Source: a virus (lineage: Duplodnaviria; Heunggongvirae; Uroviricota; Caudoviricetes). Taken from it: DNA of 4,367 bases. This document shows positions 1-4,367 of this stretch, piece after piece; within the stretch, counting starts at the first letter, position 1; each line of letters opens with the position of its first letter. A program made the translations under genes and the position numbers. The stretch lies in the IMG/VR virus record IMGVR_UViG_2711768068_000016, positions 1 through 4,367 of that record, one strand, 5' to 3'. The notes under the pieces were generated by a model. It made no database searches and was not told the origin of the DNA. It saw only the letters and a program-made list of their open reading frames with translations.

Positions 1-1761
1 TTCGTTACGCCGCTTTTTGTTATCCCACAGCAGACGCATCTTTCCTTTTTCCCACTTCTCCACAAGCTCTTCCGCGACCAGTTGCTGCGCCTCTGTCTGC
101 GAAAAAATCTCCGGATCATCAGGAAAACGGATGGCATACGACGTGGCTTCATCCGCAGGAGTGGGATCGGCTTTCATACGGGCATAGAGAATTTCTTTTG
201 CGGTGTCCGTCCCCACTTCACACAGATACACGCCCCGCTGATTGCGGGTTTTCGGCATGGTGATCACCGGCTTGCCATAGACAGATGCGCCTTTTACCGG
301 CAGCACCCGGAAAACACCGTGTTTTTTTGACCTCTGATAGACAATTTCACCATCGATCCCCCCGGTGTCCCAGCAGACACGGGAAATGGTCATTTCGGTT
401 CCGTCTGCATGGCAGTATTTTTTGTTGATCGCCGCATCCACACGTAACAGCGTCTCTTCCTCATCGGGACGGCCCATAATGATGATTTTATCCACCAGAA
501 AGGCTTCCTCTCCCGGTGCCCATCCCCAGACATACATCTCAAAACGGTTTCGCTGCGAGTCAATGCCCGCCGTCAGATAAACCACCCGGGCAGGCACCGC
601 CGCCGTGTAACGCACCACCTTATCCATCAGTACCTGGTGATCGAGTTTTTCGCCCACGGCCTCTTCCCAGGTCTCGCCCAGCGTGGTGTTCACAAAGGTT
701 TTCAGGCCGTTGGGATCTTTCAGTGCATCCAGCCAGTCATAGACTATCTGTATCCAGGTGGTGAACGGACTGTACGCCGTCCAGATATGGAACGTGATGG
801 AGCGCGGCGGCGGAATTTCATCCCCCCGGGCGCTGAAAAACATCAGGCCGTCACGGGTCCACATACCCGTGTTTTCACAGATCCAGCGCCCGTTACTCTG
901 GTCAAGCTCAGACTGATGGATCACGCAGCCATGATGTTCACAGAGGTAGAAAACGCTTTCGGGGCTGTCCTTCTCCCATTTAAGGCCAAAAGGCGTGGAT
1001 TCATCGCCAAATTTCAGATACTGCGCCTCCTCACAGTGCGGGCAGGGCACATAGAAACGCATGAAATGCGCCGACTCGTTGGCCGCTTTTTCGATCTGGC
1101 AGGTACCTTTGATTTTAGGCGTCGAGCCGCGAATGGATTTTGGCCATACAGAGCCCTCAATACGCTTATCCCCCAGCAGGGTTGGCGAGCCCTCTTTTTC
1201 GACATCCGGCTCGAACGAGGAAAGCTCGTCATAGCAGACCACGTCCACGGATTTTTCACGGTAGTTTTTGGCGGCTGCACCGCCCAGGCACCAGAAACCG
1301 ACGCCCGATGAAAAGCGTTTCAGCGTGAGAGTATTGTCACGATGTTTACGACCCAGCCATGGGGAAAGGTCTTTCAGGCATGGCACGTTCCGAATCGTCG
1401 CCTCCACGTGAGACTTCATAAAATCTTCAGCGGCAGAATCCGTGGGCTGAAAAAGCAGACTGTTTCGGGATTTATGCTCAATAAAATACCCGGCGACTCC
1501 CAGCAACATCTTTGTATAGCCAACACGGGCAGATTTAATCAGATTAACAGTGCGGATCTGATCATTCCCCATACTGTTCATGATGGCGATCTGGAACGGC
1601 AGCGTTTTCCATTCTCCCTCACCATATGAGGATTCTTTCGGCAGATAATAATACTGGTCAGCCCATTCAACTGCCGTCATCGGTACAACCCTGACCAGAG
1701 GCTGCAGCGCAACCGAAACGGCGGCCACCATATTATTCAGTTGTTGCTCTGATATATTCAT
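1..1761 (-). CDS. A: Phage terminase large subunit (lambda gpA-like), N-terminal ~587 codons; C-terminus lies beyond window position 1
   Basis: The minus-strand frame is open from ATG 1761-1759 to the window edge with no stop; the ORF track lists no closed ORF here, consistent with the stop lying outside the window. By-eye translation starts MNISEQQLNNMVAAVSVALQPLVRVVPMTAVEWADQYYYLPKESSYGEGEWKTLPFQIAIMNSMGNDQIRTVNLIKSARVGYTKMLLGV and ends LVEKWEKGKMRLLWDNKKRRNE at position 1. This is colinear with my recollection of lambda gpA (MNISNSQVNRLRHF...TAVEWADANYYLPKESAYQEGRWETLPFQRAIMNAMG...KSARVGYSKMLLGV...KKRRNEALDCF). Walker-A-like KSARVGYT and Walker-B-like VVCYDE motifs are present. Plus-strand ORFs at 82-1629 are antisense shadows of this gene. 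Confidence 0.93.
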   Translation of the reverse strand, partial: MNISEQQLNNMVAAVSVALQPLVRVVPMTAVEWADQYYYLPKESSYGEGEWKTLPFQIAIMNSMGNDQIRTVNLIKSARVGYTKMLLGVAGYFIEHKSRNSLLFQPTDSAAEDFMKSHVEATIRNVPCLKDLSPWLGRKHRDNTLTLKRFSSGVGFWCLGGAAAKNYREKSVDVVCYDELSSFEPDVEKEGSPTLLGDKRIEGSVWPKSIRGSTPKIKGTCQIEKAANESAHFMRFYVPCPHCEEAQYLKFGDESTPFGLKWEKDSPESVFYLCEHHGCVIHQSELDQSNGRWICENTGMWTRDGLMFFSARGDEIPPPRSITFHIWTAYSPFTTWIQIVYDWLDALKDPNGLKTFVNTTLGETWEEAVGEKLDHQVLMDKVVRYTAAVPARVVYLTAGIDSQRNRFEMYVWGWAPGEEAFLVDKIIIMGRPDEEETLLRVDAAINKKYCHADGTEMTISRVCWDTGGIDGEIVYQRSKKHGVFRVLPVKGASVYGKPVITMPKTRNQRGVYLCEVGTDTAKEILYARMKADPTPADEATSYAIRFPDDPEIFSQTEAQQLVAEELVEKWEKGKMRLLWDNKKRRNE

Positions 1762-2239
1762 CCAGCAAATCCGGTAATTTATCCCCTGCCCGCGCACACT
1801 GATTTGCGCCCTTTGCAATAAGGGTTTTCAGATGGTCAATATGACGTGGCGTTAAATCCGGGAACTGTCGCTGCATGGATAACGGAATGGAATCAAGCGT
1901 ACTGGACAATGCCATCGCCAGTTTGCTGAGGGCGAAAACGCAGAAGTCTGAATCGATGAGCTTACCTTCGGTTACCTGATTTTTAAGTTTTTGAGCTACA
2001 GCCTGTTCTTCTGTCAGTTCAGCTCTGGCCCGAAGCAGCCTTTCCTCCAGTTCTCCCCCGTCATCAGGTGTTCTCTGATTGTGTTGTCGCCGCTCGCGAT
2101 CTATCTCCAGTACAGTTTTAACGTCATATAAAACTTCCCTCCCCCGACGTTCAACAGGAGGAACGCCCCATTTATCAAATGCCTGAACAGAGATACCGAT
2201 GGAGGAGGCCATATCACTTTTATTCAATAAAAAGGCCAT
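1733..2239 (-). CDS. nu1: Phage terminase small subunit (lambda Nu1-like DNA-packaging protein)
   Basis: Track ORF 1733-2344 (minus) translates to ...GREVLYD...AVAQKLKNQ...DFCVFALSKLAMALSSTLDSIPLSMQRQFPDLTPRHIDHLKTLIAKG...DLLDEYIRATTE, matching recalled lambda Nu1 (NEVLYD...AQELKN...AFCTFVLSRIAGEIASILDGLPLSVQRRFPELENRHVDFLKRDIIKA...GLLSEYIEQSG). Start placed at ATG 2239-2237 (MAFLLNKSDMASSIG...) because GGAGAGGAG lies immediately upstream and it aligns with the lambda N-terminus MEVNKKQLADIFG. In-frame ATGs at 2257 and 2344 are alternatives, but the 2344 extension would read through the cosB repeats. Stop TAA at 1735-1733. Confidence 0.88.
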   Translation of the reverse strand: MAFLLNKSDMASSIGISVQAFDKWGVPPVERRGREVLYDVKTVLEIDRERRQHNQRTPDDGGELEERLLRARAELTEEQAVAQKLKNQVTEGKLIDSDFCVFALSKLAMALSSTLDSIPLSMQRQFPDLTPRHIDHLKTLIAKGANQCARAGDKLPDLLDEYIRATTE

Positions 2240-2417: not shown

Positions 2418-2455
2418 ACCCCCTCAAAAAATCTCATAAATAGTGAAAACGCGCG

Positions 2456-2467
2456 AGGTCGCCGCCC
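2456..2467. other. cosN core: 12-nt cohesive-end sequence AGGTCGCCGCCC (reverse complement of the lambda left-end overhang GGGCGGCGACCT)
   Basis: Exact 12-mer seen in sequence. The flank toward Nu1 (rev-comp CGCGCGTTTTCACTATTTATGAGATTTTTT) closely resembles the recalled lambda left end (CGCGGGTTTTCGCTATTTATGAAAATTTT). The flank on the other side (2468-2660, cgtaaccggtcggatcgccggaaaggacccg...) closely resembles the recalled lambda right end (CGTAACCTGTCGGATCACCGGAAAGGACCCG...). The site lies at the expected position immediately upstream of Nu1. Confidence 0.85.
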
Positions 2468-2660
2468 CGTAACCGGTCGGATCGCCGGAAAGGACCCGCA
2501 AAATGATAATAATTATCATCTACATGTCACAACGTGCATCTACGCCATCAAACCACGTCAAATAATCAATTATGACGCAGGTATCGTATTAATTGATCTG
2601 CATCAAATTAACGTAAAAGCAACTTCAGATAATACAAATCAGCAACACTGAATATGGGGC
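2468..2660. other. Lambda right-end-like non-coding DNA adjacent to cosN (expected to contain cosQ)
   Basis: By recollection, about 90 percent nucleotide identity to the lambda right-terminal about 200 bp (…GATAATGATTATCATCTACATATCACAACGTGCG…CAAATAATCAATTATGACGCAGGTATCGTATTAATTGATCTGCATCAACTTAACG…). No ORF present. Confidence 0.7.
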
Positions 2661-2666
2661 AACATT

Positions 2667-2891
2667 ATGTCATCAAAGAACAGAACCCGCAGAACAACAA
2701 CCCGCAACATCCGATTTCCAAACCAGATGATTGAACAAATTAACATCGCTCTTGATCTGAAAGGTTCAGGAAATTTTTCAGCGTGGGTTATTGAAGCCTG
2801 CAGAAGAAGATTAATTAATGAAAAATATTCTCAATTTGTACCCAACAAAGACAAACACGACCAGAGCACCTGTTCAGACAGGTTTACTTAA
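2667..2891 (+). CDS. ylcI: Small DUF3950 / YlcI-YnfO family protein (lambda orf-64 homolog), putative ribbon-helix-helix DNA-binding protein
   Basis: 74-aa ORF MSSKNRTRRTTTRNIRFPNQMIEQINIALDLKGSGNFSAWVIEACRRRL... The first ~50 residues are nearly identical to the recalled lambda right-end ORF / E. coli YlcI (MSTKNRTRRTTTRNIRFPNQMIEQINIALEQKGSGNFSAWVIEACRRRL...). The pattern, a short beta-strand followed by two helices, is RHH-like. Stop TAA at 2889-2891. Confidence 0.8.
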   Translation: MSSKNRTRRTTTRNIRFPNQMIEQINIALDLKGSGNFSAWVIEACRRRLINEKYSQFVPNKDKHDQSTCSDRFT

Positions 2892-2908
2892 ACGACTTAT
2901 ATATGACA

Positions 2909-2937
2909 CAAAAAGCGACCACTAAAGTCGCTTTTTC
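2909..2937. terminator. Putative bidirectional Rho-independent terminator between the convergent ylcI-like and PerC-like genes
   Basis: Hairpin AAAAAGCGAC-cactaaa-GTCGCTTTTT: GC core stem GCGAC/GTCGC at 2915-2919 and 2927-2931, A-tract 2910-2914 on one side and T-tract 2932-2936 on the other, so it reads as stem plus U-tract in both directions. It sits 18 nt after the plus-strand gene stop and 36 nt after the minus-strand gene stop. Confidence 0.5.
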
Positions 2938-2972
2938 TTATGGTAACAGGCAATAACGCTCTCAGATATTTT

Positions 2973-3287
2973 TTAGCATTTTTTTGACCGCGCGTTTCCG
3001 GACGTATTCTGTTCTCCTGTCCCTTTATATCGTCGGAATACCCGCCGCTCTTCAAATCCCATTCCCAACTCAGAATGTAGTCTGTTGACCGCTTGTTTTA
3101 TTTCGGTCAGGTTCACCGGTGAAACCGGAGTCCGGCGCGCCTTACGCAAACACTCTGCTCGTTTCTGTGCCGCCACTTTTCTTTTCTGGTCATCACTTAG
3201 CTGTACCATCACTTTTGCCCATCGTTCAGCTGCTCTCCGGTACAGTCCTTTTTTCTCCAGACATTCTGCCAGGTGATCATGTAGCAT
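2973..3287 (-). CDS. PerC-family transcriptional regulator (Pch/YfdN-like prophage moron)
   Basis: 104-aa ORF MLHDHLAECLEKKGLYRRAAERWAKVMVQLSDDQKRKVAAQKRAECLRKARR... carrying the LExKGLYRRAAxRW signature I associate with the PerC family (EPEC PerC, O157 Pch proteins, K-12 YfdN). Good RBS: GGAGG 6 nt upstream of ATG 3287. Stop TAA at 2975-2973. Confidence 0.82.
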   Translation of the reverse strand: MLHDHLAECLEKKGLYRRAAERWAKVMVQLSDDQKRKVAAQKRAECLRKARRTPVSPVNLTEIKQAVNRLHSELGMGFEERRVFRRYKGTGEQNTSGNARSKKC

Positions 3288-3750
3288 AAGTAACCTCCGT
3301 TTATCTACAGACTGCCATCCTGAATTTACCGTCCTTAATAAGACAACAATAAAAAACTAATTATATAAAAACAATAAAAATAATATACAAAAAAACTAAA
3401 CAACAAAGAAAAGCAAATCATATCTGGCATTTTAATTGAAAGAGCAATTACCGAACAAAAGACGCTGACTATATACTCAAAACCAAACAACAATTCTGCC
3501 AATCAGGTATCATGGCAACACACGGAATTACCATGTTTTTGCCTTCTCTGCCCATACAATACGGGCATATACTTCATACTCTATTGTAATATTTCTATCC
3601 ATGCGCCCCACTCCATTTACCTGTAAATAATATTCAAAATATTTATCACAGAAATCGTTTTTGGCCATGAACTGAGCACACTATAAAGTCCGGAACTGAC
3701 TCTTTGTTAAATTACCTTAACGTTACCAGTAACACCTTCATAACAAAACA
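3288..3750 (-). promoter_or_regulatory. AT-rich non-coding island: presumed promoter/long leader of the PerC-like gene and region downstream of the Rz stop
   Basis: About 460 bp with no ORF of 60 codons or more in any frame. Extremely A-rich on the plus strand (e.g. 3340-3420 aataaaaaactaattatataaaaacaataaaaataatatacaaaaaaactaaacaacaaagaaaag). GC content is far below the flanking genes. No specific -35/-10 could be assigned with confidence. Confidence 0.4.
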
Positions 3751-4224
3751 TCACGGTATACACTGGGTACGGATATATTCCTGTGCTCCTTCCAGTTGCT
3801 TCTGCATTGCCATCAGCCGTTCTCTGAGGATGAAATAATCCCGTTCAGCGGCTTCTGCCAGTCGGGGACCGGTTGCATTATCCACGCCGGAGGTGATGGG
3901 GGCTTTACGCAAGGAGCCTGGACAGTTGGCGTTGATGCGCAGGCGCTTACGACCAGCGGCAACATCAGCACGCAGAGTTTCATTTTCAGCTCTCGCATCG
4001 GCTAATTCCCTCGAGTATCTGGCATCAAGTGCAGCAACATCACGCTGGCGCTGCTGCATATCAGTAATGGTTGCATTTGCCAGCTCCAGCTCACTGACTT
4101 TTTTATCGCGCTGCTCTTTGTAGGTTATGGCGTTATCGCGGTAATGATTCAGCCCCAGACTAAGCGCACCACAGACCACCAGCAGAATAACGGTAAACGC
4201 GGAAAGCATTCGGTTTATGCTCAC
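3751..4224 (-). CDS. rz: Rz i-spanin (inner-membrane spanin subunit), lambda Rz-like
   Basis: 157-aa ORF MSINRMLSAFTVILLVVCGALSLGLNHYRDNAITYKEQRDK...DVAALDARYSRELADARAENETLRADVAAGRKRL...SGVDNATGPRLAEAAERDYFILRERLMAMQKQLEGAQEYIRTQC, colinear with recalled lambda Rz (…AVNHYRDNAITYKAQRDKN…DVAALDAKYTKELADAKAENDALRDDVAAGRRRL…ASGVDNAASPRLADTAERDYFTLRERLITMQKQLEGTQKYINEQCR). N-terminal TM helix present. GTG start at 4224 overlaps the stop of the upstream ORF (GTGA), as ATGA does in lambda R/Rz. Confidence 0.93.
   Translation of the reverse strand: MSINRMLSAFTVILLVVCGALSLGLNHYRDNAITYKEQRDKKVSELELANATITDMQQRQRDVAALDARYSRELADARAENETLRADVAAGRKRLRINANCPGSLRKAPITSGVDNATGPRLAEAAERDYFILRERLMAMQKQLEGAQEYIRTQCIP
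3813..3998 (-). CDS. rz1: Rz1 o-spanin (outer-membrane lipoprotein spanin subunit), embedded out of frame within Rz
   Basis: 61-aa ORF MRELKMKLCVLMLPLVVSACASTPTVQAPCVKPPSPPAWIMQPVPDWQKPLNGIISSSENG: signal peptide with lipobox (VVSAC), proline-rich mature region. Matches recalled lambda Rz1 (MLKLKMMLCVMMLPLVVVGCTSK…CVKPPPPPAWIMQPPPDWQTPLNGIISPSERG). Entirely nested in the Rz gene in a different frame. Confidence 0.9.
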   Translation of the reverse strand: MRELKMKLCVLMLPLVVSACASTPTVQAPCVKPPSPPAWIMQPVPDWQKPLNGIISSSENG

Positions 4225-4367
4225 CCCACCAGCCCTGCCGAAGTCAACGCCATCCAGGCCATGGAAAGAAAAAGAGCAACCAGCATTAGTGAAAATGAAA
4301 TGCCGACAAGTACACAGAGGCTCTTCACCAGCGTTATGAGTTTATCTGATATCATTAGCCACCCCAT
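4221..4367 (-). CDS. Partial ORF encoding a hydrophobic, probably membrane-spanning C-terminus (48 codons visible; start at or beyond the window edge); unclassified lysis-cassette member
   Basis: Minus-strand frame from the window edge: MGWLMISDKLITLVKSLCVLVGISFSLMLVALFLSMAWMALTSAGLVG, ending at TGA 4223-4221, which overlaps the Rz GTG start. The ATG at 4367-4365 is in frame but the ORF may extend beyond the window. The sequence is not lambda R-like (lambda R ends ...GGTVREIDV). Confidence 0.45.
   Translation of the reverse strand: MGWLMISDKLITLVKSLCVLVGISFSLMLVALFLSMAWMALTSAGLVG

Follow-up and report, generated by a model that had tools for sequence, protein, structure and literature searches.

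The locus considered here raises a simple question: what does a lambdoid phage carry between its lysis genes and its cohesive end site, where lambda has other cargo, and what would the product do? The window, by which we mean the whole 4,367-nucleotide stretch of viral DNA that was analysed, reads on its minus strand from the end of a lambdoid late operon, across cos, and into the packaging genes. The order in that direction is a 48-aa ORF, Rz/Rz1, a 463 bp spacer, a pch gene, a hairpin, a convergent 74-aa ORF, cosN, Nu1, and terL. Taken as a whole, the locus is explained best, and with high confidence, as pchB, carried as late-operon cargo of lambdoid prophages in LEE-positive E. coli, located between Rz/Rz1 and cos, and acting to de-silence ler.

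On the lysis side the cargo is bounded by the Rz spanin gene (3751..4224, minus strand; Pfam Phage_lysis, E=1.3e-46), which has 81.6% nucleotide identity to lambda Rz and within which Rz1 is embedded (3813-3998, minus strand; Pfam Rz1, E=4.1e-19). A strongly hydrophobic 48-aa ORF, MGWLMISDKLITLVKSLCVLVGISFSLMLVALFLSMAWMALTSAGLVG, at 4221-4367 on the minus strand overlaps the program-called start of Rz by 4 nt, and its ATG is exactly the right end of the window; its equivalent in Sakai, ECs_5730, is annotated as a hypothetical protein, and it is possible that it encodes a small membrane protein of the lysis cassette. On the cos side the boundary is a 74-aa gene of the YlcI/YnfO family (DUF3950) at 2667..2891 on the plus strand (Pfam DUF3950, E=1.8e-18; NCBIfam YlcI_YnfO_N), which adjoins cos and converges on pch in every cassette examined. 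The cosN cohesive end, GGGCGGCGACCT, is found by exact string match at 2456..2467 on the minus strand (2467->2456). Beyond it is a Nu1-type small terminase subunit gene (1733..2239, minus strand; Pfam Phage_Nu1, E=2.9e-21, residues 41-184), whose start is probably at M36 of the program-called ORF; RefSeq annotation at the equivalent place gives a 168-aa small terminase subunit. The large terminase subunit gene extends from an ATG at 1761 to the left end of the window as a 587-aa open frame on the minus strand that runs off the edge.

Comparison with lambda (NC_001416) delimits the exchanged segment. Window positions 3773-4155 align to lambda Rz (46027-46408) at 81.6%, and positions 2468-2814 align to the lambda right end (48502-48156) at 89.6%, this right-end homology ending at 2468, beside cosN. 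Window 2815-3772 (958 bp) therefore stands in place of the 1,747 bp of lambda 46409-48155, between the conserved Rz and orf-64. The initial annotation had placed the cargo where lambda has bor and lambdap78, which is correct, and the lambda segment holds lambdap79 too; it had also named the right-end orf-64 as the far boundary, and this boundary is real, the 74-aa ORF at 2667-2891 being identical at 48 of 53 residues (91%) to a 64-aa ORF on the lambda complementary strand. (The latter, orf-64 at complement 48303-48109, 64 codons, has no annotation in RefSeq NC_001416.) The lambda bor segment and pch occupy the same slot between Rz/Rz1 and orf-64/cos, but the cargo differs, with no blastn similarity between window 2815-3772 and lambda 46409-48155, and the two genes are oppositely oriented: transcription of bor opposes the late operon, and that of pch follows it.

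There are several features of this segment that are typical of morons. First, it is extra DNA between genes, and the same interval is differently filled in lambda. Second, its base composition is distinctive, with 33% G+C in the spacer and 36% in the downstream intergenic region versus 53% in both Rz and terL (the window as a whole is 47.3% G+C and the pch coding sequence 49.2%). Third, pch has a predicted terminator of its own, a hairpin at 2910..2936 (AAAAAGCGAC-TTTAGTG-GTCGCTTTTT, with an A-run and a T-run; not assigned to either strand) situated between the convergent pch and ylcI-like genes. The hairpin begins 37 nt past the pch stop codon and is invariant in all six aligned cassettes, and folding of 2895-2975 gives an 11-bp stem in both the minimum free energy and centroid structures (-17.3 kcal/mol, z = -2.1). 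A consensus terminator scan does not detect the hairpin at 2910-2936, the likely reason being that the stem continues into the T-run.

The cargo gene begins with an ATG and lies at 2973..3287 on the minus strand, with KKGLYRRAAERW at residues 12-23 of its 104-aa product. It had been singled out as PerC-like from the letters alone, and the Pfam PerC profile (PF06069) agrees, scoring 148.8 bits against a cut-off of 22.6 (E=5.4e-44) with residues 1-89 matched full-length to profile positions 1-89 of 90. Nucleotide comparisons permit a closer assignment. The coding sequence is identical at 315 of 315 nt to Sakai pchB (ECs_2182, prophage Sp11) and at 314 of 315 nt to Sakai pchA (ECs_1091, Sp4), the sole change in the latter being at nt 16 and giving L6V; the protein is identical to PchA at 103 of 104 residues. 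The genes pchA, pchB and pchC differ solely at nt 16, 172, and 183 (PMC5931665), and these positions are C, G and C in the window, matching pchB, versus G, G and C in pchA. Both the length of 104 aa and the near-identity to Sakai PchA and PchB are those of a group-1 Pch protein. Judged by its sequence and family match, the flagged gene is pchB and so belongs to group 1 of the pch genes (pchA/B/C), which are nearly identical to one another and encode PerC-family regulators. Annotation of the Sakai genome is in agreement, listing 'pchB, PchABC family transcriptional regulator' and 'pchA', each in Rz-pch order, and the exact 104-aa protein is present on at least 1000 contigs, where it is named a 'PchABC family' or 'PerC family transcriptional regulator'.

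The protein has the small size and helical character of the PerC family: a single-sequence AF2 model has five helices, with a pLDDT of 50.5 at which the model is usable for secondary structure alone. A PDB sequence search with the Pch protein finds no relative, the top match being a designed TPR protein at E=1.6. The ANR (AraC negative regulator) family, NCBIfam NF033650, was considered and set aside, its match to residues 7-47 falling below threshold (13.6 bits versus a cut-off of 32; E=0.046). Neither the sub-threshold ANR match nor the weak designed-TPR match is significant, and both are consistent with a helical-hairpin protein. ANR proteins are reported to interact with H-NS-like proteins, and a distant relationship between Pch and ANR would be interesting if true.

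The arrangement Rz/Rz1 – pch – ylcI-like gene – cos – Nu1 – terL is that of lambdoid prophages, and is found in Sakai Sp11 and in O111 strain 11128. The similarity to Sp11, where a small-terminase gene is located directly beyond pchB, is especially close: window 2427-4367, which takes in everything from cos and the ylcI-like gene through the hairpin, the pch coding sequence and the spacer to Rz/Rz1 and the small ORF preceding Rz, is 99.6% identical. The synteny with O157 prophages that had been suggested as a check is thus present, with Rz followed by pch as here. The packaging and head genes to the left of 2427, in contrast, are not Sp11-like in this comparison; there is a sharp mosaic junction at 2427, and the left side, with Nu1 and the large terminase, has no megablast alignment to the Sp11 packaging region. 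Because the resemblance to Sp11 stops left of cos, the window comes from a different mosaic phage with the same cassette. In Sp4, pchA is also placed after Rz, with the terminator and the distal upstream region in common, but a T-rich stretch of about 115 bp is present as another allele and the ylcI-like side is broken up by IS629.

Identification of the gene changes what can be said of its role. The initial annotation regarded the function of this particular homolog as unknown, which does not hold, as the coding sequence is that of a published activator of ler/LEE1. Its more general proposal, that PerC/Pch-type proteins encoded on prophages activate the LEE via ler, is well founded in the literature (PMC5931665, PMC4764244, PMC4456613), and the ler-reporter experiment that it recommended has in effect already been published for the identical PchB: with a ler::lacZ fusion in MG1655 delta-yfdN, PchB gives 12,513 Miller units, the top value among the five Pch proteins, versus 1,577 for the vector (PMC5931665). 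Without the group-1 Pch proteins, neither ler/LEE expression nor adherence reaches its full level, according to the account of Iyoda and Watanabe (2004) given in the papers that cite it (PMC6265319, PMC4456613), and pchA/B/C act as master switches for colonisation by EHEC, the LEE type III secretion system being barely expressed in their absence. Activation of LEE1 by Pch is fully dependent on silencing by H-NS/StpA/Hha/YdgT (Fukui et al., PMC4764244), and Pch lowers H-NS binding at LEE1 both in vivo and in a reconstituted complex in vitro (PMC4764244). No contact of Pch with H-NS or Ler was observed, and competitive DNA binding was therefore proposed (PMC4764244). This biochemical work was performed with PchA, which differs from the window protein at the single residue noted above.

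Regulation of the group-1 genes has also been described. LrhA activates both pchA and pchB, and Lrp/butyrate acts via pchA (PMC4456613); there is NtrC/sigma-S input to pchA (PMC10714755); and the sRNA DicF opens a structure pairing the Shine-Dalgarno (SD) and anti-SD sequences in the pchA leader, activating translation (PMC7873438, PMC7769764). Exposure to SOS-inducing SMX-TM for 12 h raises group-1 pch transcripts approximately 4- to 11-fold (PMC5931665). The gene, its prophage location, its target, the anti-H-NS mechanism, and several upstream regulators are thus already known, and pchB is among the best-studied prophage-encoded virulence regulators. RefSeq already annotates a pch gene in hundreds of genomes, and recognizing pch helps in annotation and risk assessment while adding no new biology; a phage in whose sequence it is found is capable of contributing to virulence regulation or of transferring it. 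Both the family and the genomic context were correctly read by the initial annotation from sequence alone.

The mechanism that we favor can be outlined as follows. In the published work on the identical protein or the one differing by a single residue, Pch is small and helical and binds DNA that is AT-rich and coated with H-NS, at the LEE1 (ler) promoter as well as at many other horizontally acquired loci, where it displaces H-NS/StpA/Hha or prevents their binding and so de-silences ler. Ler then opens the remainder of the LEE type III secretion island, for which Pch serves as a co-activator. In a lysogen, pch would be transcribed from a promoter of its own within the 463 bp AT-rich spacer, and its orientation and the published SOS response suggest that after induction it may also be read through from the phage late promoter.

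Two other systems invite comparison. Ler, which is a LEE1-encoded H-NS paralogue, is like Pch an anti-silencer: it frees virulence genes gained by horizontal transfer from repression by H-NS (PMC4764244). The two are unrelated in sequence, however, Ler showing homology to the DNA-binding domain of H-NS, whereas no similarity to known DNA-binding proteins can be detected in Pch. PerC of the EPEC pEAF plasmid, encoded in the perABC operon, belongs to the same Pfam family as Pch and has the same target promoter at LEE1/ler, but over residues 2-88 its identity is no more than about 45-48%; it is also shorter, lacking the C-terminal tail, and is carried on a plasmid rather than a prophage. Loss of perC leaves LEE expression in EPEC unchanged, and it is solely under specific growth conditions that this expression depends on PerC (PMC4764244).

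An alternative is that the gene is pchB by sequence but that this particular phage or its host lacks a LEE target, with the product acting as a general modulator of loci under H-NS silencing or of others (curli/csgD, biofilm, acid resistance), or with the gene being functionally idle cargo in transit. We regard this as improbable, although it fares better than the other alternatives considered below. It gains some plausibility from the head-gene side of the window, which is a different mosaic from Sp11, and from near-identical cassettes in strains from a monkey and an echidna, which were compared by cassette only. The distribution of the cassette, however, argues otherwise: among the matches listed, its carriers are overwhelmingly of the LEE-positive serogroups O157:H7, O111, O103, O145, and O55:H7. 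In addition, the csgA and biofilm effects reported for PchA were ler-dependent.

The 1.4-kb cassette region is covered to at least 80% in 671 of 5,426 complete E. coli genomes, and the 463 bp spacer is present in 673 of the 5,426, at 1,880 places with a median of three per genome (coverage of the spacer was at least 80% in every matching record). The best matches to the window as a whole among complete RefSeq E. coli genomes are at 95-97%. At three further loci the order Rz – spacer – pch – ylcI-like gene is unchanged and the modules beside it, endolysin or terminase/HNH, differ. Among 50,697 GenBank phage records, a single one has a Pch relative at E≤1e-5, an unannotated 1,570-bp fragment from O157:H7 ATCC 43895, and it seems that lambdoid phages with pch are known almost exclusively in the prophage state.

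The initial annotation noted about 460 bp of very AT-rich DNA preceding the gene, and the spacer from the Rz stop codon at 3751 to the pch ATG at 3287 (3288..3750, minus strand) is indeed 463 bp with 33.0% G+C, falling to 30.0% in the proximal 233 bp and 28% in the lowest 200-bp window (3301-3500); it presumably contains the promoter, regulator sites and 5′ leader of pch. Closest to the gene is a Shine-Dalgarno sequence, GGAGG (3294..3298, read 3298->3294 on the minus strand), 6 nt before the ATG, which is invariant in six of the six cassettes aligned while the adjoining bases vary. Next is a variable T-rich stretch of about 115 bp (~3330..3445, minus strand), recognized from the alignments as a set of discrete alleles: a pchB-type in the window, Sp11, and O111, a pchA-type in Sp4, O55:H7, and strain A1, and a third version in strain A25, with both flanks nearly invariant. 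Finally, the approximately 300 bp closest to Rz (~3446-3750) are almost invariant across the six cassettes. This upstream region is the only part of the locus lacking an earlier description in the literature reached. We suggest tentatively, and with the odds clearly against it, that the T-rich alleles are the physical basis of the published LrhA 'differential regulation of PchA and PchB', and, separately, that the approximately 300 bp beside Rz constitute an undescribed regulatory element; weaker still is a second reading, in which the window derives from an intact, transmissible pchB phage with a head module unlike that of Sp11.

The upstream region also bears on whether pch is an independent moron at all, or is essentially a late-operon gene made mainly upon induction by Q-antiterminated read-through past Rz. 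Several observations are compatible with the second arrangement. The gene is inside the late transcription unit and has the orientation of Rz and Nu1, and late-promoter read-through is proposed because of this shared orientation; a consensus sigma-70 scan of 3288-3750 finds no promoter-like site; and group-1 pch transcripts rise after SOS induction, as noted above. Nonetheless, we consider read-through unlikely to be the main mode of expression. First, pchA and pchB respond to LrhA, and pchA responds to Lrp/butyrate and NtrC as well. Second, pchA and pchB are needed for LEE expression in uninduced cultures. Third, a conserved 463 bp AT-rich upstream region together with a dedicated terminator hairpin is typical of an autonomous cassette. 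A candidate promoter element for pch is a perfect TATAAT at 3365->3360, one of the candidates from a relaxed promoter scan, which is confined to the pchB-type allele. Transcription from its own promoter and late read-through are not mutually exclusive, and the reading of pchB as a cargo gene with its own promoter accommodates both.

The spacer contains two small ORFs, one of 46 aa (MAKNDFCDKYFEYYLQVNGVGRMDRNITIEYEVYARIVWAEKAKTW; 3528-3668, minus strand) and one of 55 aa (3335-3502). Neither matches a Pfam or NCBIfam family, and among the matches listed RefSeq has no annotated feature beneath the spacer; the initial description of the replaced segment as containing a single gene is a fair one on these grounds. 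They were considered as genes and rejected, having neither family matches nor a Shine-Dalgarno sequence and showing only non-synonymous substitutions, and the 46-aa ORF is probably not a gene. That the conserved spacer beside Rz encodes a micro-protein in this ORF, or a small RNA, in addition to pch regulatory DNA is very unlikely, for while the 46-aa ORF is intact in six of six cassettes and the Rz-side DNA is nearly unchanged even in strain A25 with its diverged pch coding sequence, no Shine-Dalgarno sequence is visible before its ATG, all three of its variable codons are non-synonymous (R/H, Y/N, W/R), an Rfam scan of the whole window (E≤1) finds no known RNA family in the spacer or elsewhere, and the conservation is about what would be expected from recent common descent of the cassette. 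An Rfam lncRNA match at 2716-2821 is spurious (16.6 bits versus 45).

The SD/anti-SD sequestration published for the pchA leader is not clearly reproduced by predictions for the leader in the window. Partition-function folds over 25 combinations of transcript ends give a probability of 0.29-0.70 that the Shine-Dalgarno sequence is unpaired, depending on context, with partial pairing to +25..+29; with ends at -80 and +150 it is more open than in 97% of shuffled-CDS controls. A search for DicF in a 50-kb piece of Sp11 found none. A copy is present in Sakai Sp4 (L002:5733-5784, minus strand; Rfam RF00039, 76.9 bits), and is predicted to form a long, loose duplex with pch mRNA at +48 that is only marginally better than those of shuffled DicF, 3 of 200 shuffles equalling it. 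As Sp4 also bears pchA, this copy places the regulator and its target on a single element.
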